64,000 bases of DNA from a virus (IMGVR_UViG_3300027963_000043:1-64000), one strand, 5' to 3'. Shown: positions 2,734 through 63,360, counted from the first letter of the stretch. Program-made: numbers and translations. Notes: a model not told the origin generated them from the letters alone.

Positions 2734-2829
2734 ATTCAAAGATTACACAAATTAATTGATAAAAAAATAAATAGCGCAAAATTACCAGCGCCCAAGGCTT
2801 ATATTTGCTGTTGCCAGCAAAAATAAAAT

Positions 2830-3639
2830 TTAAGTGTTTTTATTTTTAGACCACTCTTTTATTCTTTTATCTGCTTCTTTTTGAGCGTCCTTAAACCAAG
2901 CTTTAGCTTTATCGAAGTGATGAAAAGAATACATTTTAGCAGAGGTATAACTTCTAAAATGATCAATATTCTCATCACATGTTCTTATATAGTTTTCTTC
3001 TTTACCAATTAAATGTGGTTTAATATTGTGTTCTCTTAATATATAATTACCTAAAATTTCTGTATCTGGCCAATTTGGAGATATTAAATTTGGAGAATGA
3101 TTATATATCTTAAATTTATTACAAAGCTTTCTTAAGCTCCATGCAAAATCAATATTATCCATAATTCTCATATCATAAATACTAGCTGTATGACTAAGCA
3201 TTCCTACCCAATCTTTATGAGCTCTTGGGGTAATTTCATATCCTACAGCTGGAGATTTTGTTTTACATAAATCTAATATATATTCAAGGAAATCTCTTCT
3301 CCTTAAGTAAACATCAGCATGAGTAGCAAATAAATATCTAGATCTAGATAAACTAAAAGCTAAATCCATTGCCATAGCAGGATAATCAGATGGATGCATT
3401 ACTCCATTTAAAACAAGAGAATGAACTTCAACGCTTTCACTTCTTAATTTTATTGCTTCTTTTAAAATTTCTTTTTTACTGCCCGTGTCAATAACCATTA
3501 TATAGGGTTTAATAGTTTGTAATTGCAATAATTTTATACAAGTTGGTAATGTTTCAAGAGTATCTCTAAAAGGTATTACTGCAACAATTTCATAATCCCA
3601 AGGTTTTTTAACACATGTTCCTTCATATACTTTAGCCAT
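2830..3639 (-). CDS. Glycosyltransferase family 2 (GT-A fold)
   Basis: VAVIPFRD...IMVIDTGS N-terminal GT2 signature; FATHADVY DxD-like motif. Confidence 0.75.
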   Translation of the reverse strand: MAKVYEGTCVKKPWDYEIVAVIPFRDTLETLPTCIKLLQLQTIKPYIMVIDTGSKKEILKEAIKLRSESVEVHSLVLNGVMHPSDYPAMAMDLAFSLSRSRYLFATHADVYLRRRDFLEYILDLCKTKSPAVGYEITPRAHKDWVGMLSHTASIYDMRIMDNIDFAWSLRKLCNKFKIYNHSPNLISPNWPDTEILGNYILREHNIKPHLIGKEENYIRTCDENIDHFRSYTSAKMYSFHHFDKAKAWFKDAQKEADKRIKEWSKNKNT

Positions 3640-3646
3640 ATATATG

Positions 3647-3674
3647 ATTATAATATAAAATCTTAAAAAATCAA
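3647..3674 (-). promoter_or_regulatory. Sigma70-like leaderless promoter for the GT2 gene
   Basis: TTGATT-N16-TATAAT, then 7 nt to ATG 3639. Back-to-back with the plus-strand GTGTAA at 3675. Confidence 0.6.
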
Positions 3675-3689
3675 GTGTAAATTTTAAAA

Positions 3690-4166
3690 ATGATCATACA
3701 AAATAAACAATTATTAGTACCATTTTATAATAACAATAATATAATACCAAAAAACTTCGTTATCTCTGATACTAATTATTTTTGCCCAACAATTGAAATG
3801 GTAACAAATGAACTATTTCCTAAATATTGGACATGGCTTCAATCATTAAAATTAACAAAATGGGTACATAAATGGGATTGTGATAATTTTGCAGATGCTT
3901 TTAAACTATTTTGTTGTGGATATTATGATCAAAATATTGAAAGTGATGCAAATGGTATAGCAATAGGAGTTATTAATTATAGGGCTAATAGCAAAGCAGA
4001 AAACGGACTACAAGGTGGGCATGCTATTAATATAGTTTATATAGATGATGGTAAAAATGATGATGGATCAGATAATTTTAGACCAATATTTATAGAACCT
4101 CAAAATGGAAAAATTTACAATCTAAGTCAAGAAGAATTCAATAGCATTTGGACAGTTTATATATAA
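3690..4166 (+). CDS. Papain/transglutaminase-like fold protein (lectin MOA C-terminal-like)
   Basis: WDCDNFA, GGHAINIV and FIEPQ form a putative Cys-His-acid triad. Confidence 0.55.
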   Translation: MIIQNKQLLVPFYNNNNIIPKNFVISDTNYFCPTIEMVTNELFPKYWTWLQSLKLTKWVHKWDCDNFADAFKLFCCGYYDQNIESDANGIAIGVINYRANSKAENGLQGGHAINIVYIDDGKNDDGSDNFRPIFIEPQNGKIYNLSQEEFNSIWTVYI

Positions 4167-4185
4167 TATAGTGTAATTTTCAGCG

Positions 4186-5104: not shown

Positions 5105-5174
5105 TAAAATTTAATTTTATTTAAATTAATTATAAAATAACACAATAGGGGTGTAATTATTTACAGTAAGTAAG

Positions 5175-5903: not shown

Positions 5904-5927
5904 AGCATAAGGTGTAATATATATTAT

Positions 5928-6218: not shown

Positions 6219-6240
6219 AAATTAAAGTGTAATAATATTT

Positions 6241-9300: not shown

Positions 9301-11760
9301 ATGAAAAAAATAATACTAACAATACTAACAGCATTAACACTAACTGTTAATTCACAAGCAGTAGTTTTCTTGTGGAATAATACTGGAACAAATTGGACGT
9401 CTCCAACAAGTTGGACAAATGGAGCGCAACCTGCATCTACTAGTTCTAGTACTACTACAGATGAAATTCAATTTGGTAATTTTGGAGTCAGTAACAATAC
9501 TGTTGTATTGACTTCTACCAGATCTACAAGAAATATAACATTCCTAACTAATGCAAATGCATATTTGATTAACAGTTTCAATGGTACACAAACAGTATCA
9601 TCTAGTGGAGGTATTACAAATAACTCTACTGCTACTCAAACATTTAATATATTAGTAGAAAATGCTAACGCCAGCAATACTTGGTTTCAAACAGCAGGTG
9701 GTGGATTGGTATTTAATAATATAGCTTCACTTACCACCGCTTCTTCAAGTACATCTAGAACTCTTACTCTTGCAGGAGATGGTTCATTCACATTCAACAA
9801 TGAACTCAGACAAGGACCTCTATCAACTGCTGGTAAAGTTATATACACAGGTAACGGTAGCGTCACATTCAATGGTAACAATACGCTGGGTGGAGGATTT
9901 GATATGACAGGAGGTGGCACTGTGACTGTTAATGGTGCTACTGGTATGGGTACTGGTGCAATAACACTTGGAGGAGCAAGTGGTACAACTAATATGCCCA
10001 AGCTTATAGTTAATACGGCTAACGGTTTATCTGCTTCTAATAGTTTGAAAGGTTCTACTAGTTTATCTACTATGGGAACATTGGATCTAGCAGGATCTAA
10101 TTCTGCTGCTGTTACTACTTATGTTATGAATCAATATCAAGGCAATAATATGAACTTTACCAATCATGGAGGATACAAGACATTACTGCAGTTTACTAAT
10201 AGTGCCAATACGCTCACTGTATCTTCAGGTTCTAGTGGTGGCAGAAGACTTTTTAACAACAGTACTAATTTAACTGTGCAGTTTGATGGTTCATTGGACA
10301 TTGGAGGAACAGTTGCAGATACAAGTGTTGTAGGTGGTGTAGGTGACTTTATATTTAAAGGTTCTCTACTCAATACTGGAGGAGCTATTAGAGGCTTAAC
10401 TAAGTCAGGAACTGGAACAGCAATTTTTCAAGCAGTCAATTCTTACAATGGTGATACTACTATACAAGATGGTACATTTATAGTTGATACTGCTGGTTCT
10501 ATTGCTTCTAGTGCTGCTATAATATCAGGTGGCACCTTAAGAGTTAAAGGTTCAGCTGGTAGTATAACTGCTAACGCAGGAAACTTAATAGTTGATAGCA
10601 CTGGGACTATTGGTAATTTCTCTATCGGTGTCACCACTACGGTATCAGTAGATGGTACAACTGGTACAATAACACAAGGCGGTGGCACCTTGGACTTGAG
10701 AGGGACTGGTAGTACATTCTCCATGTCTGCAGGAACTGCTACAGTGTATAATGGAGCGTTTCTTGGCAACTCTACCCTCACAGGAGGAAGCTTGCTCAAT
10801 AGCGGTACAATAGGCGAAACAACCATTGCCACAGGCAGTACTTTTGATGTAAAGACAGGTGGTACATCTTCTAAAGCTACTGTAAATGGTGGTACTTTGT
10901 TGGTATCAGGATCAGTCGCACAGACTGTTGTTAATTCTGGTACAGCCACAGTAAATTCTGGTGGCAATTCTGGTATCACAACTGTTAATGGCAGCACATT
11001 GGATGTATATGGAAGAACTGGTATATCAACAGTAAATACTGGTGGTACACTCAATGTAAAATCAGGCGGTAGTCTCTTAGGTACTAGTACTGTTGGTGGT
11101 GGTACTTTATTAGTAGAAGGAACAGCTGGAACTGTTATAGTTAATTCTGGCACAGCAACAGTTAATACTGGTGGCGTTATTGGTAGTACAACTATCAATG
11201 GAAGTTTACTATCAGTAAATGGAAGCGCAGGAGATGTTTTAGTAAATACAGGAGGTACATTAGGTGGCTCTGGTAGTGTGCAGGGCTTAACTCTAAATGG
11301 TGGTACTGTGGCCCCTGGCAATAGCCCTGGTCTGCTAACTGCTTATGAGTTGAATGGAAGTAATGGAACATTCCAATTCCAATTAGGCGCACCAACTACC
11401 AGAGGTATTACCTACGATGCAATTAATGTAACTAGCTTATTAACATTGGGAGCTAATACAGTATTTACATTTGAGACATTGGATAATTATATATATGCAG
11501 ATGGTAATACATATGATTTATTTGATTGGGGTTCAGCTGACATGAGCACATTTGATGTAGCAGTATTAGAAGCTGCTCTTCCTAATCTAAATACTCCTAG
11601 TACAGATCTCAAGTGGAATGTTAGTAACTTTACTACAGATGGTACAATTGGTGTTATACCAGAACCTTCTACAGGTTCACTCATGATGTTTGGTATTGCT
11701 AGCTTGATTACGCTCAAAGCTATAAGGAGAAAAAAATGCCAACATCAAAATCATTCTTAG
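9301..11760 (+). CDS. Large PEP-CTERM protein with autotransporter-associated beta-strand repeats
   Basis: Start re-called to ATG 9301 (MKKIILT..SQA signal peptide). GLTKSGTGT...NSYNGDTTIQDGT repeat, G/T-rich beta-helix, TVAPGNSPG, and C-terminal VIPEPSTGSLMMFGIASLITLKAIRRKK. Confidence 0.9.
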   Translation: MKKIILTILTALTLTVNSQAVVFLWNNTGTNWTSPTSWTNGAQPASTSSSTTTDEIQFGNFGVSNNTVVLTSTRSTRNITFLTNANAYLINSFNGTQTVSSSGGITNNSTATQTFNILVENANASNTWFQTAGGGLVFNNIASLTTASSSTSRTLTLAGDGSFTFNNELRQGPLSTAGKVIYTGNGSVTFNGNNTLGGGFDMTGGGTVTVNGATGMGTGAITLGGASGTTNMPKLIVNTANGLSASNSLKGSTSLSTMGTLDLAGSNSAAVTTYVMNQYQGNNMNFTNHGGYKTLLQFTNSANTLTVSSGSSGGRRLFNNSTNLTVQFDGSLDIGGTVADTSVVGGVGDFIFKGSLLNTGGAIRGLTKSGTGTAIFQAVNSYNGDTTIQDGTFIVDTAGSIASSAAIISGGTLRVKGSAGSITANAGNLIVDSTGTIGNFSIGVTTTVSVDGTTGTITQGGGTLDLRGTGSTFSMSAGTATVYNGAFLGNSTLTGGSLLNSGTIGETTIATGSTFDVKTGGTSSKATVNGGTLLVSGSVAQTVVNSGTATVNSGGNSGITTVNGSTLDVYGRTGISTVNTGGTLNVKSGGSLLGTSTVGGGTLLVEGTAGTVIVNSGTATVNTGGVIGSTTINGSLLSVNGSAGDVLVNTGGTLGGSGSVQGLTLNGGTVAPGNSPGLLTAYELNGSNGTFQFQLGAPTTRGITYDAINVTSLLTLGANTVFTFETLDNYIYADGNTYDLFDWGSADMSTFDVAVLEAALPNLNTPSTDLKWNVSNFTTDGTIGVIPEPSTGSLMMFGIASLITLKAIRRKKCQHQNHS

Positions 11761-12404
11761 AGCATTTAAGATTATTAAAACTCTCACATTTTGGTTTTAC
11801 ATTAGTTGAAATGTTAGTTGTAATTGGTATAATTGGATTATTAGCGAGTTTGATATTTCCTGCGTATTCATCCGTTAAACGTAAATCATCTCAAGCTGTT
11901 TGTGCATCAAATATGAAACAAGTAGGTATGGCAATTAATTTATTTGCTAATGATAATGATGGTTGGCTTCCTCCTGGTCCAGATGGTCAAACAATCAATA
12001 CATTTATTCGAGATTCTAGGTATGGAGGCAATACTGCAAATGTTGTTGATAAATCTAATCTTGAATATTATATTACAAATTATATAACTGTTCGATCTAT
12101 AGGTGGTAAAAAAAGAAAAGGTAATCCAGTCTTTACTTGTCCAGCACATGATGAAAAACATTCTATAATATGGAAAAGAGGATCTTGTTTTGGTGGAGCT
12201 GGCGGAGTATATGGCATACAAAATTCAGAAAAATTAATTGGAGTAGATACAAATGATTATTTTTTAGTTGATTTTACAAAGGCTTTTACAAATCATTCGA
12301 CTATATCTTTAAATGAAACAGTAAAAAATCCTCATGGTCAATTTAGAAATCTGTTAAGAACAGATGGTAGTGTAATATTAGAATCTGATACAAAAATTAG
12401 ATAG
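11736..12404 (+). CDS. Prepilin-type N-terminal cleavage/methylation protein with H-X9-DG C-terminal motif
   Basis: G|FTLVEMLVVIGIIGLLASLIFPA; C.SNMKQVGMA..LFANDNDGWLP; H-GQFRNLLRT-DG near the C-terminus. SD AAGGAG. Confidence 0.92.
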   Translation: MPTSKSFLEHLRLLKLSHFGFTLVEMLVVIGIIGLLASLIFPAYSSVKRKSSQAVCASNMKQVGMAINLFANDNDGWLPPGPDGQTINTFIRDSRYGGNTANVVDKSNLEYYITNYITVRSIGGKKRKGNPVFTCPAHDEKHSIIWKRGSCFGGAGGVYGIQNSEKLIGVDTNDYFLVDFTKAFTNHSTISLNETVKNPHGQFRNLLRTDGSVILESDTKIR

Positions 12405-14114: not shown

Positions 14115-14133
14115 TCTGGTGTAAGCTTTATGT

Positions 14134-14400: not shown

Positions 14401-14475
14401 TTATTTCAATCTTTCAATAAGATAAAAGATATAAATAAATACTGCCACGCAAATTAATCCACTAGCCATAGTCAT
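14401..14475 (-). CDS. 24-aa single-TM microprotein
   Basis: MTMASGLICVAVFIYIFYLIERLK. ATG is 10 nt after a minus-strand GTGTAAT (14491-14485). Its stop abuts the stop of 14134..14400. Confidence 0.5.
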   Translation of the reverse strand: MTMASGLICVAVFIYIFYLIERLK

Positions 14476-14543
14476 ATAAAAATTATTACACAAATTAAAA
14501 ATATATAATTTATAATATAAATTTATTCACATATAATTTATAA

Positions 14544-15296: not shown

Positions 15297-15333
15297 AATT
15301 AATACACTTATTGATTTAAGTGTAATAGAGAAT

Positions 15334-16776: not shown

Positions 16777-16782
16777 TATAAT
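16777..16782 (+). promoter_or_regulatory. TATAAT -10 box, leaderless layout, heading the Zn-ribbon/sigma/packaging operon
   Basis: Perfect TATAAT 7 nt before ATG 16790; TAGATT 17 nt upstream. No GTGTAA here. Confidence 0.55.
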
Positions 16783-16789: not shown

Positions 16790-17239
16790 ATGAAAAGATA
16801 TTGTATTTCTTGCGGATCGCCTACAGAATATAGCACTAAAAAACCATTATTCTGTTCAAGTTGTGGTAAATCATTTGATAAAATAGACAAAGTTGAAGTA
16901 AACCCAGTTGTTCAAAAAACTTTAATGCAAAAAAAGACAGTAGCCACTAAGAAATATATAGAAGATAAGAATCATGATACAGATTACGATATAGATTCTG
17001 ATGATATTGATTTAGATCAGGACAATGATATTTCTGTTCCAAACATATCAAAACTAGAAGTAGAGAGTGATTCTCAAGAAAATTTTAAAAATAAAGGAGA
17101 AAAAATAAGCTCTCTTGTAGGAACTTCTTCCTCAAAAGGTAAAAGGAATAAAATTGTTAAAAGTAGTAAAACTTCAAAAAAACAAATACTAGAAGATTTT
17201 GCTAAAGAAGCAGGTACATCAAGAAAATCTAAAAAATAA
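16790..17239 (+). CDS. Zinc-ribbon protein
   Basis: CISCG...FCSSCG, followed by acidic and Lys-rich regions. Start re-called to ATG 16790. TAATG coupling to the next gene. Confidence 0.7.
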   Translation: MKRYCISCGSPTEYSTKKPLFCSSCGKSFDKIDKVEVNPVVQKTLMQKKTVATKKYIEDKNHDTDYDIDSDDIDLDQDNDISVPNISKLEVESDSQENFKNKGEKISSLVGTSSSKGKRNKIVKSSKTSKKQILEDFAKEAGTSRKSKK

Positions 17240-17922
17240 TGAAGTCTCCAAAAGCTAGTTTTGAAAGTAGAATTTTGGAAATCAACCAAGAAATTAGCAA
17301 AAGAAAACATAAATGGAGTTTAACGACTTTAGCTTGGATGGATTTTAACGATGTATCTCAAATACTTAGGATACATATTTATAAAAAATGGAATATGTAC
17401 GATCAAAGTCAGCCTTTAGCTCCATGGGTTAATAGAATAGTAAGCAATCAAATTAAAAATTTAATAAGAAATAATTATGGAAATTATTCAAGACCATGCT
17501 TGAAATGTGCTGCAGCAGAAAATGATGATGGTTGCAATATATATGGTTCTCAATGCGATAAATGTCCACTTTATGCTAAATGGCAAAAAAGTAAAAAATC
17601 CGCACATGATATAAAATTGCCAGTGTCACTAGAAAATCATACTCAAGAAGTTCACAATATAATTGGCGATCAAATGGATATAGAGAAATCAGCAAAGAAT
17701 ATACATGCAAAAATGCGTCAAATTTTAAAACCAATCGAATGGAAATTTTACGAATTACATTATATAAAGCATAAATCTGAAGAGGAATCTGCAAAATTAA
17801 TGGGATATAGAACAAATGAAAAAAATAGGAAAATTGGATATAAACAAGTTAAAAATCTTAAAAAATCCATTATGACAAAAGTTAAAAAGTATTTATATAA
17901 TGGAGATATAGATATTAATTAA
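17239..17922 (+). CDS. Phage sigma-70-family (ECF-like) RNA polymerase sigma factor with Cys-rich insertion
   Basis: Region-2-like DFNDVSQILRIHIYKKWNMYDQSQPLAPWVNRIVSNQIKNLIR. Region-4-like LKPIEWKFYELHYIKHKSEEESAKLMGY. Insertion CLKC-x8-C-x6-CDKC. Confidence 0.72.
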   Translation: MKSPKASFESRILEINQEISKRKHKWSLTTLAWMDFNDVSQILRIHIYKKWNMYDQSQPLAPWVNRIVSNQIKNLIRNNYGNYSRPCLKCAAAENDDGCNIYGSQCDKCPLYAKWQKSKKSAHDIKLPVSLENHTQEVHNIIGDQMDIEKSAKNIHAKMRQILKPIEWKFYELHYIKHKSEEESAKLMGYRTNEKNRKIGYKQVKNLKKSIMTKVKKYLYNGDIDIN

Positions 17923-17923: not shown

Positions 17924-19018
17924 ATGAGCGAAAACTTACCAGAGCTTACAGAAGAACAGCAATTAAATCTATTAAATGAATGGAATAATCGTGCAGATAA
18001 TCCACCTTCATTAACTGAATTAGTTAAATTGGCTTTTGGTAGAGATGATCTTGATGGAAGAAGCAAAGAAGGGAAAGCTGTAAAACAATTTCTTGCGGCA
18101 AGACAAATTAAACCACGAAAAAGTCACGAATATCAAGCCAAAGGTCTTATCGAATTAACAGAAGACCAAAAAGAATATATCAGTAATAATTGCGCAACTA
18201 TGACAGGAATTGAAATAGCTAAAATTTTATTTAAAAATGAATCATTAACAAATCTTTCTCAAGAAACTAGAAGTGTGCTCGATTATATGAAAACTATACC
18301 TAGCAATATTAAGTATCTTAACGATACAAATGAAAATACTGCTACAGAAATTTATAAAGCTCCACGAAGTGAAGAGAGAATGATTGTTAAAATTAATAAA
18401 TATATATTAGATGGAATTGACAAAGAAAAAATTACACCAAGACAAAAGAAAGATGTCAATTCCTTAATTGGTTATATGAATACTTATAGATTTACCCATC
18501 AAATTAATCTTTATAGTGATGAAAATGATAGAGATCTTTTTGAAAGCAGTTTCGTTAGATATACTTATGACAAAAGCGACTTAACTCAAGAAGAAGTAGA
18601 TCAATATATAGTTTTAGCTACAGAAGTAGTAATATCATCTAGTATTCAACAAACAATCACAGCATTACAAGATCAAATAGATATAGCAACTCAAGAAGAT
18701 GGTAAAATTCCAATGGCAGTAGTAGAAGCTAGCAGCACAGCTAGAAAAGAGTATAATGATTGCGTAAATCGTCAACAAAAATTATTACAAGATCTCAAAG
18801 TTAAAAGAAGCGAAAGACTCAGTAAGCAAGTTAAAGAAAATGCTAGCATTTTAAATCTAGTTGAAATGTGGAAGCAAGAAGAATCAAGGCAAAAGTTATT
18901 AAAAATCGCAGAACTTAGAAAAAATAGCATCAAAAAAGAGATTGAACGACTTGGATCAATGGAAGAATTAAAAGCTAGAATACTTGGAATATCAGAAGAT
19001 GATATTTTAAACGGATAA
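17924..19018 (+). CDS. Hypothetical packaging-region protein (terminase small subunit candidate)
   Basis: Position two genes upstream of TerL; helical with a C-terminal coiled coil. No diagnostic motif. Confidence 0.5.
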   Translation: MSENLPELTEEQQLNLLNEWNNRADNPPSLTELVKLAFGRDDLDGRSKEGKAVKQFLAARQIKPRKSHEYQAKGLIELTEDQKEYISNNCATMTGIEIAKILFKNESLTNLSQETRSVLDYMKTIPSNIKYLNDTNENTATEIYKAPRSEERMIVKINKYILDGIDKEKITPRQKKDVNSLIGYMNTYRFTHQINLYSDENDRDLFESSFVRYTYDKSDLTQEEVDQYIVLATEVVISSSIQQTITALQDQIDIATQEDGKIPMAVVEASSTARKEYNDCVNRQQKLLQDLKVKRSERLSKQVKENASILNLVEMWKQEESRQKLLKIAELRKNSIKKEIERLGSMEELKARILGISEDDILNG

Positions 19019-21799: not shown

Positions 21800-21818
21800 G
21801 TGTAATATCTTTAAATAA

Positions 21819-23760: not shown

Positions 23761-23818
23761 TATTAAATGCGAACATTTAATAAAATTAGTGTAATTTAAT
23801 TAAATGCGTACATTTAAT
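23761..23818. repeat. Twin palindromes flanking a GTGTAA motif
   Basis: TATTAAATG-CGAA-CATTTAATA (23761-23782) and ATTAAATG-CGTA-CATTTAAT (23799-23818, contains ATG 23804). Confidence 0.8.
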
Positions 23819-25457: not shown

Positions 25458-25504
25458 AATATTAATAAAAATAAAAGTGTAATCCTATTTAAGGATTAAG
25501 GATA

Positions 25505-26710
25505 ATGGCTAGAAATAGAATAATCTACAATGTAGAAGGTTTATATGTTGCTCCATATAGTGGAGAACAAAACGCTAACTCTGATTATTATTTAGCTAAT
25601 CATATTATTCTTAAAAGATTAGAAAAAATACAAAATTTTAATTATTCAATTCAACAACCAAGATCAAATGTTCAAGGTTTTGGTCAAAAACAGAATATTT
25701 TTCAAGGCATGAGTACATCTCCAGAAGTTACTTTTAATTTTTCTTATATTCCAGATGGAGTCACAAATGAGAATAGATTAAATTTTAATGTTAATCATTT
25801 TTCTGGATACAATGCTCCAATGTTTTCTGGATTATGTACTAATAGTGGTTTACTAAATGATAGAGATTTTTATCTTGTAATAAATAAAGATGATAATGAT
25901 TTGTTTTCTGAAAATGCAACTTTAACCAATTCTTTAATTAATCCAACTAATGTTACTCAAATAATAAATTCAGATAGCAGAAATTATGGATTATTACATT
26001 TTCAAAATTCTTATCTTAATGAATATTCTTTTAATGTTTCGCTCGGAAATTTGCCAGTAGTCAATCAAAGTTATGTTGCAGATAATATTGTTTTTTATAC
26101 TAGTGGATCTGGAGTAAACTATACTTTATTAGATTTAAAATCTGGAATCAATCAAGTAAACAATGATACAATTATTATTCCAAAAGCTTTAAATTATAAT
26201 CAAACTGCAATTAGTGGACAAAATATTCTTTTGCCAGGAGATGCAACTGTTAGTTTTTATACAAGTAATACTGGGGTTTTATTTTATACTGATACAATTC
26301 AAAGTTTAGATTATTCATTATCTTTTAATAGAAAATCTTATAAAGCAATTAATTACAAATTCCCATTATTAAGAAAAATAGAATTCCCGATTAATGGAAA
26401 ATTAAATACAAGTTTTGTTGTAAAAGAAGACCTTGTTGGTTCGTTTTTTGACACTTTAAACAGAGACGATAATTATAATGTTGTTGTTGATTTTAGTAAT
26501 TCAAGAAGAGGAGTAGATAAAACAAAATTGACTTTTAGTGGTTGTAAATTCACAAATATTAATTACGACTCTTCTATCGGAAGCAATAAAACTGCCACAT
26601 TAAGTTTTGACTTTGATCTTGATCCAGATTTTGGAAGAAGAGGATTATTTGTTAGTGGAAATGTATTATATGGGGTTTTGAATAATCAAAAGAAAGTATT
26701 GATATTTTAA
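25505..26710 (+). CDS. Tail-tube-like protein, paralog of 44906..46057
   Basis: MARNRIIY vs MPRNRIIY; L..IQ..NYS; S.IGSNKT..L.F shared. Confidence 0.65.
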   Translation: MARNRIIYNVEGLYVAPYSGEQNANSDYYLANHIILKRLEKIQNFNYSIQQPRSNVQGFGQKQNIFQGMSTSPEVTFNFSYIPDGVTNENRLNFNVNHFSGYNAPMFSGLCTNSGLLNDRDFYLVINKDDNDLFSENATLTNSLINPTNVTQIINSDSRNYGLLHFQNSYLNEYSFNVSLGNLPVVNQSYVADNIVFYTSGSGVNYTLLDLKSGINQVNNDTIIIPKALNYNQTAISGQNILLPGDATVSFYTSNTGVLFYTDTIQSLDYSLSFNRKSYKAINYKFPLLRKIEFPINGKLNTSFVVKEDLVGSFFDTLNRDDNYNVVVDFSNSRRGVDKTKLTFSGCKFTNINYDSSIGSNKTATLSFDFDLDPDFGRRGLFVSGNVLYGVLNNQKKVLIF

Positions 26711-26742
26711 TTTTTAATACATATAATATAGTGTAATATATT

Positions 26743-29235: not shown

Positions 29236-29745
29236 ATGAATTACAATTCTGAACAATATGGCTTTGATTTGATTAAAGCCAAGAGAACATATAAGCCAAA
29301 AGTCCGTAAAAATAAAAATTCAGAAAAATCATTAGTATTTTCTAAAAAAATAATCGCAGCTTTAGAAGATAAAGCCAAGATTCATAACGAAAAATTTGAT
29401 AAAAAAGTTAATTTACTTGAACTTAAAAAAGCTTATAAATCTGGATTTAATACATCAATTCATTTAAACGAAGAAACTCTTGCTCACGTTAATTTATTTT
29501 TAAGAATTACGCAAGAAGATAAAAAAAGTATTTTTAGTAATTTTAAATCTGGTGGATTTGAAATAATTAATAATCAATTTGTTATTAAAGCTAGTATTTC
29601 TCCAGAGGAAATTGACTATATTCAAGCAAAAGAAGATATTAAAAATTATAAACTAGAAGATTTTGATTTTAAGACCCACGAAGAATTATATCTAGAAGAC
29701 GAAGAAGATCGTGTAACTATTTATGGCTTTAACAATAATATATAA
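29236..29745 (+). CDS. Hypothetical head-region protein
   Basis: Start re-called to ATG 29236; directly upstream of the prohead protease. Confidence 0.65.
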   Translation: MNYNSEQYGFDLIKAKRTYKPKVRKNKNSEKSLVFSKKIIAALEDKAKIHNEKFDKKVNLLELKKAYKSGFNTSIHLNEETLAHVNLFLRITQEDKKSIFSNFKSGGFEIINNQFVIKASISPEEIDYIQAKEDIKNYKLEDFDFKTHEELYLEDEEDRVTIYGFNNNI

Positions 29746-29748: not shown

Positions 29749-31284
29749 ATGAATTTTCAATTTACAACAACATTTGCAAATTTACAAGTTAAACCATTAG
29801 TCAGCGAAGAGAAGGATAAATATCTTTCATTAGCGTCTATTGATAGTTTAAAGAAATTTTTGCCAGAAATTGATACAGAGAAAAATGTAGATCTTCTACC
29901 TATAGCTTTTGATGCTTGCGTAGTTAATAGAGTTAATAAAAATGGTGACGTAGTAAACTCTCTAACAGCAGCCGAAATGCTAAAAGATTTTATAAATAAA
30001 CCAATTAATGTTGAGCATGATAGAACAAAGGTCGTTGGTTGCATACTAACAGCTAATTTTAGTAAATTTGGTACAAATGAAGTCCTCTCTGAAGACCAAG
30101 TCAAAGATATGAAAGAACCATTTTATATTACTCTCGGAGGAGTAATTTGGAAGATTATTAATCCTCAATTATCTAATCTTATTGAAGAAAGTAATGACCC
30201 TTCTAGTGAAAATTATATGAACGTAAGCGCTAGTTGGGAACTTGGATTTAACGAATACGATTTAGTTCTTCTTAACGATAATAATAAAAATCTAGAAGAT
30301 GCCAAATTTGTATCCGATGACAAGCAAAAAGATAAATTAAAGAAAAATTTAAAAGCTTTTGGTGGTTCTGGTAAAATAGATAAAAATACATCTATTTATC
30401 GTCAAGTATTAGGAAATGTTATTCCATTAGGAATAGGCTTAACAGCTAATCCTGCTGCTGATGTACAAGGAGTAGCTACCAAAGATGAACAAAGTTTAGA
30501 AGTTGAAATATCTAAACCAGAGGAAAATGATCAAATGTCAGATTCTTCTGATATTAATTGTGAAAATAATATTTCACAAGATGAAGAAAATACTGTAAAT
30601 GAAGAAGGAGTTATAAACAGAATAATTATGAAAATAGAAAATATCAATCAAATAACCGATGAGCTTTTGAAGCAAGTAACTGCTTCTAGCATTTCCGATT
30701 TTATTCAAGAGGAACTTAAAAAAGCCTCAGAAGCTTTCACAGCTGAAAAGAATGAAAAAGATAGCGCTATTAAAGCTACTCAAGAAAAATACGATGCACT
30801 ATCTACTGAAAGTGAAAAAGTAAAAGAAGAGCTAGAAAAACTAAAAGCTTCTCTTGCTAAACTTGAAGAAGAGAAAGTTGCTAAAGCCCAAGAAGAAGCC
30901 TTCAATCTAAGAATGGCTACCTTTGACGAAGAATTTGATCTTTCTGATGAAGATCGCCAAGTTCTCGCAACTGATATCAAAGATTTAAATGATGAATCTT
31001 TTGCTGCTTATAAAAATAAGATGGCAGTTCTTATGAAAGAAAAAAATAAAGCTGCTAAAAAAGCAAAAGAAGACGAAATGAAAAAAAGTAAAGCTTCCGA
31101 AGTTAAAGAAGAAATTAAAGCTTCAACATCTTCAGAACAATCTGCAACCGAAGTTGTAGATGAAGTTCTCGACAATTCTAACGTTGAGAAGAATTCGATT
31201 CCAAATTCTACAACAACCGCTGAAGTTTCGCTACGTGAAAAATATAGCAAAGCTTTCGGTCTTGAAGGATTTGATATTAAATAA
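29749..31284 (+). CDS. Prohead protease with C-terminal scaffold-like coiled coil
   Basis: KPINVEHD, VSASWELGF and GIGLTANPAADV are assemblin/HK97-type protease-like motifs. E/K-rich coiled-coil C-half. Located upstream of the capsid genes. Confidence 0.72.
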   Translation: MNFQFTTTFANLQVKPLVSEEKDKYLSLASIDSLKKFLPEIDTEKNVDLLPIAFDACVVNRVNKNGDVVNSLTAAEMLKDFINKPINVEHDRTKVVGCILTANFSKFGTNEVLSEDQVKDMKEPFYITLGGVIWKIINPQLSNLIEESNDPSSENYMNVSASWELGFNEYDLVLLNDNNKNLEDAKFVSDDKQKDKLKKNLKAFGGSGKIDKNTSIYRQVLGNVIPLGIGLTANPAADVQGVATKDEQSLEVEISKPEENDQMSDSSDINCENNISQDEENTVNEEGVINRIIMKIENINQITDELLKQVTASSISDFIQEELKKASEAFTAEKNEKDSAIKATQEKYDALSTESEKVKEELEKLKASLAKLEEEKVAKAQEEAFNLRMATFDEEFDLSDEDRQVLATDIKDLNDESFAAYKNKMAVLMKEKNKAAKKAKEDEMKKSKASEVKEEIKASTSSEQSATEVVDEVLDNSNVEKNSIPNSTTTAEVSLREKYSKAFGLEGFDIK

Positions 31285-31305
31285 TAAACAAGGAGAAATA
31301 AATTT

Positions 31306-31905
31306 ATGGCATATACACTCAGACCATTAAGAGATTACAGCGAACATGATGTAATCAACTTCTTTGCCGTTGATGCTGCACAAGACGCTAATGGCGTTAT
31401 TGCTACAGCAGGCACAGTAGTTAAAGTAACAGGAAACGGTTTCCAACCAGTATCAGACACCTCACTTGGTGGTGGAACAGGATTCTTAGGCCAAATCCCA
31501 GTTGATTTGGGCGGAACTCTTGGAATTCCAGGACTAAGTAACGTTGTTTCTAACCGTTACGTTGTAACTGCAAAAGTAGCCCCAGCAGTTGCACAAGATA
31601 CAGCACCAATAGGAATTACCCTAATGGCAACCCAAGAGCTTGATGAAAATGGTGAAAAACTAATTTTCAAGCCTGGAAAAGCTGCCGAAAAGGGAGTAGT
31701 TGTCAGTGGTCAAGCAGTACCAGTTCTAACTAGAGGCGTTCTCGTCTATAGTGGATCAGCTGGAGATTTCCCTGCTACCGCTAACGTTGGCGCAGCAATT
31801 TATGTTGCCGCTGGAAGCTTAAGTTGTTCAGCAGGTGCCAAACAAGTTGGTACTTTACTAAGTAAGCCAGTTAATGGTATTGCTTTAGTTAAACTCAACT
31901 TCTAA
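31306..31905 (+). CDS. Capsid decoration/cement-like protein
   Basis: Between scaffold and major capsid; strong SD AAGGAG; small A/G/V-rich beta protein. Confidence 0.55.
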   Translation: MAYTLRPLRDYSEHDVINFFAVDAAQDANGVIATAGTVVKVTGNGFQPVSDTSLGGGTGFLGQIPVDLGGTLGIPGLSNVVSNRYVVTAKVAPAVAQDTAPIGITLMATQELDENGEKLIFKPGKAAEKGVVVSGQAVPVLTRGVLVYSGSAGDFPATANVGAAIYVAAGSLSCSAGAKQVGTLLSKPVNGIALVKLNF

Positions 31906-31925
31906 TTTAAGGAGAATTACAAAAA

Positions 31926-33011: not shown

Positions 33012-33033
33012 GTTAAATTAGATTAAAATTAAA

Positions 33034-33480: not shown

Positions 33481-33515
33481 TTTATAATTTGGCGTGTTAA
33501 AGTGTAATATACAAC

Positions 33516-36002
33516 ATGACAGGTTTAGCTTATATTCAAATTTATAATTCCGCTTCTGGAAGTTTTTTCGAAAATAAAAATCTTGGCGTTGAAGCTGTTA
33601 AATTTTTTAACGAAGATAGACTTAAATTTAATAATACAGTAGAAATAGATAAATTACTTACAACTCGTATTTCTATTGGAAAAAATTCTTCTGGTGATGC
33701 AAAATATAGCGTAAATGTAGGAATTAATAATTCTTCAATTTTAACTAAAACTGGATTAGCAAATTTTTATGGTCCAGTCAATTTTGGACTTCTTAATAGT
33801 TCAACTGATTCTACTAGAGCTTACAATATTGGTGGACAAAATACTATATTAGATTCAGATCAAGCAATGATTTTTGGTATTAATAACCAATACTCTGGAA
33901 TAGTAAGGTCTTATGCTTTAGGTGGAAATAATATAATTGAATCTGGAACAGAAAATGTTATAATTGGTAGAGATAATGCTTTACGCAATGATAATCAAAC
34001 TTCTCTTATTTTAGGATTTTATAATCAAAATATTGAAAAAAATAAAGGTTCTTTAATAGTTGGTAATTCAAATACAGAAATTTTAAATTCAAATAATATT
34101 AATTTGATTGGTAATTATAATTCAATTTTCGGTTCTAAAAATACCATAATTTTTGGAGAAGCAAATAGCGCAATCAGTAATGATTCATCCTATGTTTATG
34201 GTGGAAATAATAATATAACAACAGGTTATCAAGATGTAGTTTTTGGAAAATCAAATATTTTAGCGTCTGGTATTTCTAATTTAGTTTTTGGTTTGGGAAA
34301 TAGTTCTTCATATGGAAATTCTGAAAATATATTTGGTAGATCAAATTCTTCAATTGGTAATTTAAATTTTATAAATGGAATACAAAATACTGTCAAAAGT
34401 AGATATTCAGAAGAGAATGAAGTTTTGGGAAGACTAAATATTTTAAACAAAGCATCAAATAATATTATTGTTGGAAAATCAAATAGATCATCTGAAGATG
34501 CATATCTTAATTTATACGGAACTGGATTAGGACAATCATTTATTGACGAACAAGTTTCTGGAGCAGCATATGCTGGAATTTTTGGTAATCAAAATTATAC
34601 ATCTAGATCTTTTTATTCTTATATTTTTGGTAATAACAATATTGTAGATTTTAATTTGAATGGCTATACCATAGGTGAAAACAATCGCGTAATGGTATCG
34701 CAAGGCTCCTATATTTTTGGAAAAGGCAATCAACTTTCTGGTAAAAATAATTTCTTAATAGGATTTAATAACACTATTAGATCTGGAGACTCTGATGTAA
34801 TAGTAATTGGTCAATACTATACAGCAAAAGATGATTTTGAAAAAAATAAAATAATAATAAATTATCAAAATAATCGTATAGAAGTTATCAATACTGGAAT
34901 TAAACTTACTTCTAGCACTTCACCAACTATAAATGGAGATAAGATATTAACTACTCCAGATTTAATATCTATTGAAAATTCTATAAATGATCAGCGTATA
35001 GCAAATACAATTAATTATTTTTCGTTAACTGGAGAATTATATACTAATCCATTAAATCTTTATGATACAAAAATAGATCATCTTGCAAATAAAGTTAACG
35101 TAATAAGTGGTGCTTACACTCAAACCATATTGGATTCTGTTGCATTACAATTTGATATTTCTGGAGTAACTGGAATGGGATTGACAATAGGAAAATTAAG
35201 CTTTAAAATTCCATCTAATACAATTTTTACGAGAGCTAGAAAATCATTAGACTATTCTGGATTGTTTAATATTTCAGAGATTTATTATCAAAATAAAAAC
35301 TATAACATGGGCATATTCCATGATAAAAGTTCTAAACAATGGTTAGTTGGTGATTTAAATTCTGACGAATATTATTTCTTCAGCACCCAAAGCAATCCAA
35401 ATATATTTGGTGGTTCCAGTGGACAAATTGGAGACTTGCGACAAGAGTTGGGTGCAACTAGATTTAGAGCAACTGGTACATACGCAGGAGCTGCAGGTAT
35501 TACATATTATAGTGGTATGGAGAGCACTATAAATGGAAAGAAATATGGACCTCTTTTTGTATATAATACAAAAGAAATTAGCGTAAATCAAATTTATACA
35601 TCAATTGAACTTCCAAAAAATCTTGGAGATTTTTCTTATATTCCATCAACAGTATACGAATCTGAAGATAATAATTTTAATTTATTCTTTGGTAAACCGT
35701 ATGCATTAACCAATGGATTTAAGAAAAAGAACCAAAATAATCAATATGTTGATTATCAATGGTTAATAGTAAATAATCTTTTAAGCAATAGATCTGGCGA
35801 ACTTTATTTTGGAGATAATTTAACCTCTACTTCTCAAACTGCTGATTTTTCATTCAAAACAACTGGTACTAATTTAGCTTATACTGGATTTGGTAATGGA
35901 AGAACACCAGCTATAACTTTAAGAATGGATGGCAGCAGATATTCATTAGTTAAATCTTATGTTCCAAATTATGGACAAGTTTATTTTCCATTTTATTATT
36001 AA
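33516..36002 (+). CDS. Fibre/adhesin-like protein with S..FG..N beta-roll repeats
   Basis: Numerous I.G..N repeats; Asn/Ser/Gly-rich. 8 nt after GTGTAA. Confidence 0.7.
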   Translation: MTGLAYIQIYNSASGSFFENKNLGVEAVKFFNEDRLKFNNTVEIDKLLTTRISIGKNSSGDAKYSVNVGINNSSILTKTGLANFYGPVNFGLLNSSTDSTRAYNIGGQNTILDSDQAMIFGINNQYSGIVRSYALGGNNIIESGTENVIIGRDNALRNDNQTSLILGFYNQNIEKNKGSLIVGNSNTEILNSNNINLIGNYNSIFGSKNTIIFGEANSAISNDSSYVYGGNNNITTGYQDVVFGKSNILASGISNLVFGLGNSSSYGNSENIFGRSNSSIGNLNFINGIQNTVKSRYSEENEVLGRLNILNKASNNIIVGKSNRSSEDAYLNLYGTGLGQSFIDEQVSGAAYAGIFGNQNYTSRSFYSYIFGNNNIVDFNLNGYTIGENNRVMVSQGSYIFGKGNQLSGKNNFLIGFNNTIRSGDSDVIVIGQYYTAKDDFEKNKIIINYQNNRIEVINTGIKLTSSTSPTINGDKILTTPDLISIENSINDQRIANTINYFSLTGELYTNPLNLYDTKIDHLANKVNVISGAYTQTILDSVALQFDISGVTGMGLTIGKLSFKIPSNTIFTRARKSLDYSGLFNISEIYYQNKNYNMGIFHDKSSKQWLVGDLNSDEYYFFSTQSNPNIFGGSSGQIGDLRQELGATRFRATGTYAGAAGITYYSGMESTINGKKYGPLFVYNTKEISVNQIYTSIELPKNLGDFSYIPSTVYESEDNNFNLFFGKPYALTNGFKKKNQNNQYVDYQWLIVNNLLSNRSGELYFGDNLTSTSQTADFSFKTTGTNLAYTGFGNGRTPAITLRMDGSRYSLVKSYVPNYGQVYFPFYY

Positions 36003-36038
36003 TTTTTAAATTGTTTTTTAATTGGTGTAATTTATTAT

Positions 36039-36963: not shown

Positions 36964-37000
36964 ATATTGTGTGTAATAATATAAAAGGAAATAAAAATTT

Positions 37001-37826: not shown

Positions 37827-37929
37827 TCTAGTGTAATATTCACTAGAATAATAGAATTAATAATTCTTTTACTCTTTAGTCTGCCATAAAAAGCAGCAAT
37901 TTAGCGAAAGCTAATAAAAGGAATAAAAA
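37827..37929 (+). promoter_or_regulatory. GTGTAA motif embedded in an inverted repeat, followed by a structured ~93-nt leader
   Basis: TCTAGTG-TAATATT-CACTAGA (37827-37847), AGAATTA-A-TAATTCT (37853-37867), CTGC-N8-GCAG (37881-37896), TTAGC-GAAA-GCTAA (37901-37914), then SD AAAGGA and a GTG start. Confidence 0.6.
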
Positions 37930-42402: not shown

Positions 42403-42433
42403 AATTTAAATAATTTAAAGTGTAATTTAAGGT

Positions 42434-44849: not shown

Positions 44850-44905
44850 AAAAGTAGAAAAAATAAAAAAATCGGTGTAATAACAATAAATGGAGAATAA
44901 CTAAT

Positions 44906-46117: not shown

Positions 46118-46160
46118 GTGTAATTGAAGTTGGTAAAGGGTTAGATAAAGGTAAAAGATT

Positions 46161-48432: not shown

Positions 48433-48493
48433 TAGGTAATACTATCATAATTAATAATATTTCGTGTAATTCCTTATAGTAAAGGAATAAGGC

Positions 48494-60650: not shown

Positions 60651-61390
60651 ACTATTTTCCTATATACACTTTCTGTGTGTTTTTTATAAATATTTGAGTA
60701 TTCATCTATCCTAGAAACAGAATTAATTGGTTGATGTAAAATTTTTTCATCTCCAATATATAAGGCAAAATGTTTTAAAGAATGAAGTTTAATAATTAAA
60801 ACATCATAAATATTTAAATTTTTTTCATTTTTTAACATTTTAAATCCCATTTTTTCCCAAATATTTACAGATAAATTTTCTTCAATAAGTTCTTGTGCGG
60901 TTGTTAAGCATTTATAGTCTTTTTTAATAAAAAGACTCATATTTGTATTAAATTCTTTTTCAAAAAACTCTTTTATTAAAGTAAAGCAATCATATTTTCC
61001 TATTTCAAATGATCTTCCAATATAATTATCTAAATTAATTTTTTTAGATGGATCATAAATTTTAAAAACATCTTTATATGTAGAATATAAAATAATTGGT
61101 ACTCCTAACATTTCTGCGCATTTTATATCTAAATTAGAAAAATCATCATTATCTAAAATAGCATTATGAGAATGATAAATATAACTAATTTTATCTGAAT
61201 CATTTTTAATACTTAAATAAATTGCAGGAGAAATTTCAAAATTATGTTTAGGATTTAAAGATATATTTTTACATTTTTGTGCAAAAAGAATTTTATTTTT
61301 TTGATAAACTACTCCACATGCCTCTCTTTCTTTTTGTTTTTCTTGATGAGCATGTAATCTGATATAATTTTTTATATATTCATTTATCAT
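60647..61390 (-). CDS. Tail assembly protein (lambda gpK-like; JAB/MPN + NlpC/P60)
   Basis: EACG, YHSH...FSNLD (JAMM); GKYDCFTLIK, HFALYIG...ILHQ (NlpC/P60). Start re-called to ATG 61390. Confidence 0.88.
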   Translation of the reverse strand: MINEYIKNYIRLHAHQEKQKEREACGVVYQKNKILFAQKCKNISLNPKHNFEISPAIYLSIKNDSDKISYIYHSHNAILDNDDFSNLDIKCAEMLGVPIILYSTYKDVFKIYDPSKKINLDNYIGRSFEIGKYDCFTLIKEFFEKEFNTNMSLFIKKDYKCLTTAQELIEENLSVNIWEKMGFKMLKNEKNLNIYDVLIIKLHSLKHFALYIGDEKILHQPINSVSRIDEYSNIYKKHTESVYRKIV

Positions 61391-61391
61391 A

Positions 61392-62774
61392 TTATAAATT
61401 TGGTTGATTTGTGCCAGGAAATCCTCCGAATGGTAAAAATCCATTTAAATAATTTCCATCTTTATCTTTTGGAAGTCCATGAGAATTTAGACCAGTTGGA
61501 TTCTCGCAACCAGGTCTTCTTGGAAAATTTTCTGGTGTTACAATACCACTAGAAACGAGACTATTTCTTTCTGCTTGAGTTAAAAGATTTCTAAATCTAT
61601 CACAAGTTTTTATAAAATCTTCCCCATTTCTATTTGTAGGCCAAATTACAGGTCTAAAAGATGGATTTTTAAGCCATCTTAATCTACAAGCTGTAATTGA
61701 TTTTTCGCAAGTATCAGAAAGCCAATAATTTTTAGTTGGAGGAGCATTAAAAAAATTTGATTTATGATTATTTATACAAACATAATAATATTTAATATTT
61801 TTATTTTGTAAAAATACAAAATCTCCAGAAACATAATCTGCTGAATCGACCCATGAACCAGAATCACCAAGTTTTGCATTAGAATCTACTTGATAACCTG
61901 CCCCAGTTATTCTATGAGAAGCTGCACTAAGATTTTTAAAAATGTCTCCTACAAATAATTCATTATTTTCTGTAGCAACTGGTGGAGCAGTTTTTAATCC
62001 ATAAATTTGTACAGATGGATTTACTGTATTCGCATATATACCACTATGAACAGCTGTAAGCCTACTATTATATTCATAAACGCATCCTTCTCCTCTATAT
62101 TGGAACGGACATTTTGTTGAAAAAATTGTTCTTGATGGTAATACTAAATTTTCTAAATCTAATATTGTAGCTAATTGATATTGTACTGTATTTTTATTTT
62201 CTGCAATTTTTCTATCAATATAATAAATATCTCTTGGTAATTCTATATCATAAATTGATCCATTTGGATTATATGGATTTAATCCTGCGCTAAAATTATT
62301 GTGATTTAAATATTTTAAAAAAGTTTTAATTCTTGTGAATTTTGCTCCAACAATATCTCCAAGGGATTCAATTTGCATTCTAATATATTTATAAAAAGAA
62401 TTATTAGATTTATCTGGAGAAATATTACTTATTGAAAAAGTTGGAGTTGGTTGAGTACCCGCACTCGAAAGCTCAAAACCTTCAGAAAATATTGGAAATG
62501 GATAGTAAAAATTATTTTGAAATTTTAATTGTCCATATTGATATTGACTATTAATGATATTAAATAAATTATAATCATTGTAAACTCTAAATATACCATT
62601 ATTAATTGGTTGATCGGTGTTATTATTATTATAATTTTTCGTTTGAGGAGCTATTTCTGATAAATCAATTTCATATAAAATAATTTGTGCGGATGGTGTT
62701 AATGAAGATATTTCTGAGTTTATCAGAGTACTTCCGCTTATAATTGCATTAAATGTTTCTAGTGATGTTGGCAT
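61392..62774 (-). CDS. Minor tail protein (lambda gpL-like)
   Basis: CPFQYRGEGC, DTCEKSITACRLRW and LPFGGFPG. Start re-called to ATG 62774 (MPTSL). Confidence 0.88.
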   Translation of the reverse strand: MPTSLETFNAIISGSTLINSEISSLTPSAQIILYEIDLSEIAPQTKNYNNNNTDQPINNGIFRVYNDYNLFNIINSQYQYGQLKFQNNFYYPFPIFSEGFELSSAGTQPTPTFSISNISPDKSNNSFYKYIRMQIESLGDIVGAKFTRIKTFLKYLNHNNFSAGLNPYNPNGSIYDIELPRDIYYIDRKIAENKNTVQYQLATILDLENLVLPSRTIFSTKCPFQYRGEGCVYEYNSRLTAVHSGIYANTVNPSVQIYGLKTAPPVATENNELFVGDIFKNLSAASHRITGAGYQVDSNAKLGDSGSWVDSADYVSGDFVFLQNKNIKYYYVCINNHKSNFFNAPPTKNYWLSDTCEKSITACRLRWLKNPSFRPVIWPTNRNGEDFIKTCDRFRNLLTQAERNSLVSSGIVTPENFPRRPGCENPTGLNSHGLPKDKDGNYLNGFLPFGGFPGTNQPNL

Positions 62775-62775
62775 A

Positions 62776-63318
62776 TTACTGTGGAACCTCGATGAATTCC
62801 GCTTTAATAGAATAATTATTATAAGAAACAAAAGATGCGTCCCACTGCAAGCAAATAAATAATGTATTTAAACTAGATGCAGATTTTGCATATACTGTGG
62901 GAAGATTGTATATAAAACTCTCAAGAGAATTTCTTGCTCTTAAAAAATGCAATATAGAAACAGTTTCTTTTTCAGATCTATTATCAAATATTAAAGATAA
63001 GTTAATAAGATTATTATTCAATCCAGAAGAAATTCTTTGTTGATAACCATTACCAAAAGCGTTAATTGTTATTTTAGGAGAATTGTTAACAGCAGAACTA
63101 TATGAAGGTTTCCAGAAAAAATTTGGATATAATACTCCATTTAAAAGAATATATCCATCCCATTCAACTTGGAGATTAGAGGTGGTAACTGGATCTTGAT
63201 TTAAATTTGAATCAATGATTGAATAGTAATATTTACTATTACTACCAAGTACTATATCGTACTTATTATAAGTAGGTGCTCCGTTCCAGCTTGAAACTGT
63301 ATCGTAAATACTAGCCAT
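62776..63318 (-). CDS. Minor tail protein (lambda gpM-like) with N-terminal extension
   Basis: FGNGYQQRI..GLNN...L.F pattern; first gene of the M-L-K-I-J series. Confidence 0.8.
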   Translation of the reverse strand: MASIYDTVSSWNGAPTYNKYDIVLGSNSKYYYSIIDSNLNQDPVTTSNLQVEWDGYILLNGVLYPNFFWKPSYSSAVNNSPKITINAFGNGYQQRISSGLNNNLINLSLIFDNRSEKETVSILHFLRARNSLESFIYNLPTVYAKSASSLNTLFICLQWDASFVSYNNYSIKAEFIEVPQ

Positions 63319-63339
63319 ATACCTTTTACCTCCTATATT

Positions 63340-63360
63340 TTACACTTAAAAGAGGTGTAA
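63340..63360. promoter_or_regulatory. Divergent back-to-back GTGTAA motifs
   Basis: TTACAC-TTAAAAGAG-GTGTAA, serving 63318(-) and 63370(+). Confidence 0.75.

Follow-up and report, generated by a model that had tools for sequence, protein, structure and literature searches.

The window studied here is the whole 64,000-nt stretch IMGVR_UViG_3300027963_000043:1-64000, i.e. the first 64 kb of a 133,591-bp IMG/VR contig of an uncultured lake phage (29.6% G+C; ~87% complete by CheckV). A short element, GTGTAA, mostly followed by T, lies in its intergenic spacers close upstream of genes of the virion and tail arm. Judged from its sequence context, GTGTAA is very probably a promoter element, and the full statement, that GTGTAA(T/A) is a one-box promoter specific to the phage, from which messages start with no leader or almost none, is likely, if held with a little less confidence.

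Of all hexamers, GTGTAA showed the strongest enrichment in the 40-nt regions before the genes of the whole contig, being found in 27 of 171 where 1.0 was expected (p = 5e-30). Its total in the window, counted on both strands, was 27, and shuffled sequences gave 27.95. As listed below, 23 of the 27 copies were intergenic and co-oriented with the next gene, 14 of them at 6–10 nt from an ATG with no Shine-Dalgarno (SD) sequence and nine at 13–93 nt; a previous analysis of this DNA from its letters alone (the sequence-only reading) had reported the same numbers, which the per-site table reproduced exactly. Two copies were within the last codons of the upstream gene and directed at the next start, and two were intragenic and antisense, the latter probably by chance.

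Inside genes the hexamer was almost absent. The coding sequence of the window had 0 sense copies, where codon shuffles predicted 9.9 ± 2.9, and 2 antisense copies, where they predicted 12.5 ± 3.2. Outside the window the sense count was 1 (8.9 expected) and the antisense count 4 (12.0 expected). The total thus stayed at chance level because the enrichment upstream of genes was offset by avoidance inside them, on both strands. The heptamer GTGTAAT occurred 27 times in the contig, 24 times on the plus strand and 3 times on the minus strand, and 25 of these copies were intergenic; 22 were in the window (the structural arm) and 5 in the other 69.6 kb. The sequence-only reading had left a count of intergenic against coding copies and of strand bias to be made, and both came out clearly: strong enrichment upstream, near-absence from coding sequence and a 24:3 division between strands.

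The boxes at 6–10 nt from an ATG, all without an SD sequence, were:
2743–2748, minus strand: box 9 nt from ATG 2733 (gene 2062–2733), with a weak hairpin and T-run 12 nt upstream
3675–3680, plus strand: GTGTAA(A) box 9 nt from ATG 3690
4171–4176, plus strand: box 9 nt from ATG 4186 of a ferredoxin-family gene (phrog_3704)
5912–5917, plus strand: box 10 nt from ATG 5928
6227–6232, plus strand: box 8 nt from ATG 6241
14119–14124, plus strand: GTGTAA(G) box 9 nt from ATG 14134
14486–14491, minus strand: GTGTAAT box 10 nt from ATG 14475, leading a 24-aa hydrophobic open reading frame (ORF) at 14401–14475, minus strand (MTMASGLICVAVFIYIFYLIERLK), which may encode an unannotated small membrane protein
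15320–15325, plus strand: box 8 nt from ATG 15334 (DUF5856); GTGTATAT instead in some relatives
23789–23794, plus strand: box 9 nt from ATG 23804; an invariant island in spacers that are otherwise unalignable
26731–26736, plus strand: box 6 nt from ATG 26743, overlapped by a host-type TTGATA-N17-TATAAT (-10 at 26722–26727)
33502–33507, plus strand: box 8 nt from ATG 33516 (828 aa, beta-roll fibre-like)
36025–36030, plus strand: box 8 nt from ATG 36039 (phrog_1084)
42420–42425, plus strand: box 8 nt from ATG 42434
63355–63360, plus strand: box 9 nt from ATG 63370; divergent partner of the box at 63340

The boxes at 13–93 nt from a start codon were:
5151–5156, plus strand: box 18 nt from ATG 5175 (PhoH-like)
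21800–21805, plus strand: box 13 nt from ATG 21819 (portal-like, a protein-atlas lead); kept in 30 orthologous spacers
25477–25482, plus strand: box 22 nt from ATG 25505 (tail-tube-like, a protein-atlas lead); two AAGGA in the leader
36971–36976, plus strand: box 24 nt from ATG 37001; AAGGA as SD
37831–37836, plus strand: box 93 nt from GTG 37930 (873 aa, BppL_N); AAGGA as SD
44875–44880, plus strand: box 25 nt from ATG 44906; GGAG as SD
46118–46123, plus strand: box abutting an intrinsic terminator (-17.1 kcal/mol hairpin and T6), 37 nt from ATG 46161; AAGG as SD
48464–48469, plus strand: box 24 nt from ATG 48494 (2080-aa tape measure, PF10145); AAGGA as SD
63340–63345, minus strand: box 21 nt from ATG 63318; AGGAGG as SD; heads the leftward tail operon 63318–54738, which includes a 1230-aa Phage-tail_3 protein

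The remaining four copies were:
12370–12375, plus strand: box within the 3′ end of gene 11736–12404, 37 nt from ATG 12413; function uncertain
29711–29716, plus strand: GTGTAA(C) box within the 3′ end of gene 29236–29745, 32 nt from ATG 29749; function uncertain
18432–18437, minus strand: GTGTAAT, intragenic and antisense, with no ORF downstream
35114–35119, minus strand: GTGTAA(G), intragenic and antisense, with no ORF downstream

Box-led genes thus included those for the tape measure and for the BppL-like, portal-like and tube-like proteins, and for these the claim that the motif precedes portal, fibre, lysis, neck, tube, tape-measure and tip genes was supported. Naming the class “late” agrees with this content of virion genes; the timing was deduced from gene content only, and the PhoH and ferredoxin-family genes were box-led too. 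Genes inside operons had no GTGTAA box. The box was also missing, as had been noticed before, from the leftward module and the sigma operon, both of which carried host-type boxes instead.

All gene-proximal copies were co-oriented with their gene. Positions 1–6 were invariant among them, G1 as much as the others, and position 7 was T in 22 of 29 copies and A in five; none of the 18 one-mismatch variants of positions 1–6 was enriched upstream of genes. A search for a -35 element from -50 to -1 gave nothing above background, only G/C depletion, either at the 29 sites of this phage or over 58 genomes or loci that together contributed 163 non-redundant sites, and at most box sites there was no host-type -35/-10 pair at a usable distance. 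The earlier description of a single short orientation-specific box without a -35 was therefore borne out by the lack of upstream information in both sets of sites. Its interpretation as TATAAT with a changed -11 base (TGTAAT) was not: that alignment is arbitrary, given an equally invariant G1, a position 7 that may be T or A and no enriched variant. An extended -10 (TGn-TATAAT) was considered and rejected, the TG being out of register and the would-be -7 T just 43% conserved. With positions 3–8 (GTAAWW) as the hexamer, 6 nt would remain before the A of the ATG at the modal spacing, the same as at host-type boxes; with the TGTAAT alignment, 7 nt would remain. By its sequence the box resembles elements of the extracytoplasmic function (ECF) and phiEco32 types rather than a mutated TATAAT.

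The distance from box to start codon was strongly peaked. Over the contig it was 8 nt at 11 sites, 9 nt at seven, 10 nt at two, and 6, 13, 15 and 18 nt at one site each, all with no SD; the intergenic sites at 21–25, 37 and 93 nt all had AAGG or GGAG at SD distance. In a cruder gene table, none of the 21 genes with a short spacer had an SD-like 4-mer, against 6 of the 10 with a long spacer and 23 of the 140 others (Fisher p = 0.004). At 46118 the box came directly after a terminator hairpin, giving a terminator-then-promoter arrangement.

Three of the longer leaders had further structure. Those at 25477–25504 and 48464–48493 shared a layout, in which the 5′ arm of a 7-bp hairpin begins inside the box (TAATCCT / ATTCCTT) and the 3′ arm is the AAGGA SD, followed by a second AAGG; the hairpins could form in read-through RNA only and were no more stable than many shuffled sequences (z = -1.3 and -1.95). 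The 93-nt leader of the BppL_N gene (37837–37929) contained a GAAA-tetraloop hairpin (TTAGC-GAAA-GCTAA) and had no Rfam match.

The box was well kept in related phages. In 47 related loci, retrieved through the sigma gene described below (61–89% sigma identity), it was found within 40 nt upstream of 204 of 774 genes, with the same peak at 8–9 nt. Alignments of orthologous spacers before five genes showed GTGTAA(T/A) as an invariant island while flanks and spacer drifted, most clearly at 23804. Ten more loci were retrieved with distant family members (sigma 32–44% identical to the queries; 28–43% G+C). GTGTAA was the top upstream hexamer in three of them (L058, L060 and L067), ranked high in L059, L061 and L062, and was not enriched in L063–L066, three of which were short fragments; spacing in the ten again peaked at 8–9 nt. 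Upstream of the transfer-messenger RNA (tmRNA), too, there was a GTGTAA copy, at 22 nt from the mature 5′ end, and in a relative with 71% sigma identity GTGTAAG before tmRNA was kept as the gap to TATAAT changed from 0 to 2 nt.

Two observations on relatives and neighbours of these sites were made in passing. Before the orthologue of gene 15334 in seven loci (L009, L013, L018, L019, L033, L054 and L055), a conserved GTGTATAT replaces the box ~8–10 nt from the ATG, and strings like GTGTATAT also stand before window genes 29236 and 60650 (minus strand); GTGTATAT may be a weaker box variant. Directly downstream of the tmRNA 3′ end, at 94688–94701 (minus strand), GTGTAAA lies 8 nt from a 471-aa gene (93272–94687, minus strand).

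The regions before genes were enriched in TTGACA and TATAAT as well. Strict scanning for TTGnnn-N16-18-TAnnnT gave 27 sites with a downstream ORF, mostly in the 64–133 kb replication arm, and at 15 of them the -10 hexamer ended 3–9 nt before the start codon (mode 6). Examples of host-type promoters 6–9 nt from starts were at 65830 and 77718 on the minus strand and at 103464, 111534, 112492, 118307 and 127708 on the plus strand, and in the leftward 135–1676 module TAGATT boxes were placed likewise. Among genes without a box, just 16% had an SD-like 4-mer. A -10-like signal ~10–12 bp before the start codon is a published computational signature of leaderless genes (PMC3160421; see also PMC12340547). 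The layout was genome-wide, because host-type -10 hexamers held the same position before ATGs. The leaderless arrangement ascribed by the sequence-only reading to this motif was thus supported in so far as GTGTAA, without an SD, occupies the place of a -10 element, and proved not to be special to the box, the TTGACA-N17-TATAAT promoters abutting ATGs as well. Leaderless architecture is accordingly predicted, from promoter positions, to be a trait of the whole genome, presumably the host's, rather than of the GTGTAA class, and the early and replication genes are predicted to be leaderless too.

At 26697–26742 the two kinds of signal met: a host-type TTGATA-N17-TATAAT overlaps GTGTAAT 3 nt downstream. 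The overlap recurs in 14 distinct orthologous spacers and could serve as a dual promoter, early and late. A possible third promoter class (TTAGAw-N15-20-TAnnnT), suggested by the sequence before the sigma operon, had a handful of scattered sites only and was treated as a weak host-type promoter.

We propose that host core RNA polymerase with a phage sigma factor would bind GTGTAA(T/A), making no -35 contact, and would melt the A/T-rich DNA just downstream of the box, so that RNA would start ~6–8 nt after it. With the modal spacer of 8–9 nt, the A of the ATG would be at or next to +1, and the message would have no leader or one of 1–2 nt and would need no SD; with a spacer of 21 nt or more, an AAGG or GGAG SD would be supplied instead. 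The box class would drive the genes of the virion and tail arm and a small number of auxiliary ones; early genes and those for replication would have host-type TTGACA-N17-TATAAT promoters with the same leaderless layout. The sigma factor reading the box would be the ECF-like, zinc-finger-bearing product of the gene at 17239 or the product of an ORF at 102820.

The sigma operon in the window comprised:
16777–16782, plus strand: TATAAT 7 nt from ATG 16790, the host-type promoter of the operon, with a weak TTAGAT -35-like element; kept in near relatives
16790–17239, plus strand: partner gene (zinc-ribbon-like), its translation coupled to that of the sigma gene
17239–17922, plus strand: candidate ECF-like sigma with a four-cysteine insertion, one of two candidate box readers

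The 17239 protein (227 aa) belonged to a family of 1,723 homologues (446 representatives at 50% clustering), several of which carry PF04542 and are named sigma-24/sigma-70 family by the Joint Genome Institute (JGI). A 45-member family profile matched the sigma-2 domains of SigR, SigW, CnrH, RpoE and SigH in the Protein Data Bank (PDB), the best match being SigR (E = 3.3e-4); no Pfam region-4 match was found. The AlphaFold (AF2) model had a predicted local distance difference test (pLDDT) score of 91.5 and a C-terminal helical domain, and the list of Foldseek matches was almost all ECF sigmas, aligned over ~215 columns, i.e. full length. Between the sigma-2-like and C-terminal domains, four cysteines (C87, C90, C99 and C109) were invariant in the family. 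The protein matched no PHROG family, and tblastn over 50,697 phage records gave no match either. It is thus a candidate ECF-like sigma, with a sigma-2 domain by profile and a putative sigma-4-like domain by predicted fold. Its partner, encoded at 16790–17239, has zinc-ribbon-like CxxC pairs, and the two could be a sigma/anti-sigma or a sigma/co-factor pair.

The operon was preceded by TTAGAw-N17/18-TATAAT-N7-ATG in this phage and its near relatives, and by GTGTAA in seven distant loci (L052, L059, L061 and L063–L066). GTGTAA in that place is a hint in favour of the 17239 type as the reader: ECF-style positive autoregulation would give this arrangement, but so would a late gene under another factor. 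A search for a single-subunit polymerase gave no match; its search control was uninformative.

The idea that a phage sigma reads the box has the sigma-like 17239 protein in its favour, and the choice of reader is complicated by a second sigma-like ORF outside the window, at contig 102820–103449 (L057:1387–2016; 209 aa). This protein is unrelated in sequence to the 17239 protein and had weak matches to Sigma70_r4 (E = 1.8e-4) and Sigma70_r2 (E = 6e-3). Its gene stands behind a host-type TTGACT-N17-TAAGAT-N8-ATG and would be made early, and both sigma genes were present, together with the box, in every complete or near-complete relative tested (G005, G006, G007 and G010). The box could therefore be a promoter read by the 102820 protein, or by host holoenzyme reprogrammed by a small phage protein, with the 17239 protein serving other genes; the 17239-type operons behind GTGTAA in distant relatives could equally be targets of such another factor. 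We regard this as unlikely, though likelier than the other rivals. A canonical region 4, as in the 102820 protein, would be expected to use a -35, and the box class has none. The 17239 gene is located inside the box-driven arm, beside packaging genes, and ECF-type sigmas are typically autoregulated; moreover, no other strongly enriched phage-specific motif was found that a second sigma might serve. The chance that the 17239 sigma is the box reader is, from the sequence evidence, about even.

Two other explanations take the box away from the promoter core. It could be an operator for an activator or repressor acting over ordinary A/T-rich promoters, as the box is short, invariant and orientation-specific, lies in A/T-rich spacers where TAnnnT-like hexamers arise by chance, and overlaps or abuts a host-type promoter at 26731 and at tmRNA. 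That is improbable: at most sites no host-type pair stands at a workable distance, the fixed 8–9 nt to the ATG is the geometry of a -10 element, and avoidance in genes on both strands is more typical of an autonomous start signal. The box could also act in RNA, either by recruiting ribosomes in place of an SD or by being cut by a phage endoribonuclease that turns polycistronic RNA into leaderless messages; 8–9 nt is also a typical SD-to-start distance, and the rarity of SD-like 4-mers among other genes (16%) might call for another signal. This we consider the least probable of all. Genes avoid the box on both of their strands, antisense included, which fits a start signal in DNA rather than in mRNA. 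A transcription signal is also favoured because a normal SD intervenes wherever 21 nt or more separate the box from the start, because the box directly follows a terminator and because a copy precedes the non-coding tmRNA. It is also missing from genes inside operons, and host-type -10 boxes hold the same position at other genes.

Several points weigh against the proposed one-box GTGTAA promoter read by a phage sigma. An ECF-like sigma with a sigma-4-like domain normally needs a -35, and none was found in the 163 sites. The Pfam match of the 17239 protein to Sigma70_r2 (E = 2.9e-4) was under the cut-off, and each Foldseek match was weak (E = 5e-3 or worse) with low template-modelling (TM) scores, as two flexibly linked domains would lead one to expect. 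Because both sigma genes are kept in all relatives tested, their co-occurrence cannot assign the reader. Gene starts came from crude ATG-based ORF calling. The tmRNA box adjoins a good host-type TTGCCA-N17-TATAAT directly upstream and could be incidental, and the upstream region is 78–80% conserved overall, which makes its retention modest evidence only. RNA data came from one lake metatranscriptome (X1; 8% of sampled words), as contigs only, which carry no start or end information. Depth in X1 was concentrated on 30847–33038 and was deepest on genes 31306–31905 and 31926–33011, which are SD-led with no box directly upstream.

These two genes had no family match and are possibly major capsid genes with their own promoter; one X1 contig ends in adapter at 33038. 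Another X1 contig begins at 23817, 13 nt inside gene 23804, and was rejected as evidence of a start.

A literature search for GTGTAA with phage and promoter found nothing relevant. The nearest characterised analogue, as far as promoter layout can be compared, is phiEco32, whose middle and late promoters have one element, tAATGTAtA, with the transcription start site 6–8 bp downstream, and are read by host core with phage sigma gp36; its relative 7-11 has a bipartite GTAAtg-N16-aCTA (PMC8948821). Like the box, the phiEco32 element is a single conserved short sequence before late genes with no -35; a TGTA core is common to both, and the GTAA of GTGTAA is within the GTAAtg promoter half of 7-11. 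The phiEco32 element differs in sequence and in its invariant positions, and its messages are not described as leaderless. Furthermore, gp36 is without region 4, and the 17239 protein has a putative domain of sigma-4 type by predicted fold as well as the four-cysteine insertion; no sequence relation of the 17239 protein to gp36 or gp55 was detectable with PHROGs or by tblastn in the 50,697 phage records.

T4 late promoters (TATAAATA) have one box and no -35, are read by gp55 with gp33 and the sliding clamp, and give messages that have leaders with SDs. They resemble the GTGTAA class as strict one-box promoters of the -10 type for virion genes, with no -35, and in that the sigma is small, divergent and phage-encoded, as is proposed for the reader of the box; the box sequence and the SD-bearing leaders are different, and the virion genes of the present phage are unlike those of T4. 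ECF promoters are bipartite, one part being a conserved -35. Those of sigma-E and sigma-W have a -10 containing GT, and the candidate sigma here has an ECF-like sigma-2; the GTAA match of the box with the single-stranded ligand of PDB 5or5 (sigma-E region 2 with GTAAAA) rests on the title of that entry only. The difference is the lack of a -35 in the GTGTAA class, if GTGTAA is the target of the 17239 protein.

In leaderless genes of Deinococcus-Thermus and Actinobacteria, a -10 box abuts the ORF (PMC3160421, PMC12340547), and middle and late promoters of the Thermus phage P23-45 have no -35 (PMC7403470). The bacterial genes share with those studied here a -10 element ~6–8 nt before the start, no SD and, as predicted here, a common start of transcription and translation. 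In all three, the element is TAnnnT or an extended -10 read by the host primary sigma. In the present phage, unlike Deinococcus-Thermus and Actinobacteria, the unrelated GTGTAA occupies the same position beside host-type boxes, in a low-G+C (30%) genome.

If the proposed promoter is correct, it allows operons and start codons to be mapped throughout a large family of lake and marine phages that are uncultured and whose virion genes mostly match no known family. It would be the third experimentally approachable one-box phage-sigma promoter, after those of T4 and phiEco32, with a sigma that is ECF-like and has a zinc-finger insertion. The same 7 bp would set both RNA start and protein start, and a 7-bp promoter with its own small sigma would be a candidate orthogonal expression part, a compact sigma/promoter pair. 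The leaderless layout at both promoter classes would imply host ribosomes that are efficient on 5′-terminal AUGs, which narrows the search for the host. A wider proposal, put forward tentatively and at somewhat less than an even chance, is that widespread uncultured aquatic phages have nearly the whole genome leaderless, with two identically laid-out promoter alphabets, of which the one-box class is read without a -35 by an ECF-like sigma of a new kind, its two domains separated by a zinc finger.

As to the phage itself, megablast against cultured phages found no near-identical phage, and no Rfam family was found within the window. Homologues of a prepilin-like gene, whose matches were mostly restricted to the N-terminal signal, were spread over Acidobacteriota, Planctomycetota, Armatimonadota, Verrucomicrobiota and others, and gave no host call. 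Most of the remaining proteins of the virion arm had no PHROG match. Besides the tape measure, the arm in the window encodes a terminase (Terminase_6N) and Phage-tail_3, BppL_N and beta-roll fibre-like proteins, and its TerL was only 24–27% identical to terminases of Firmicutes siphophages.

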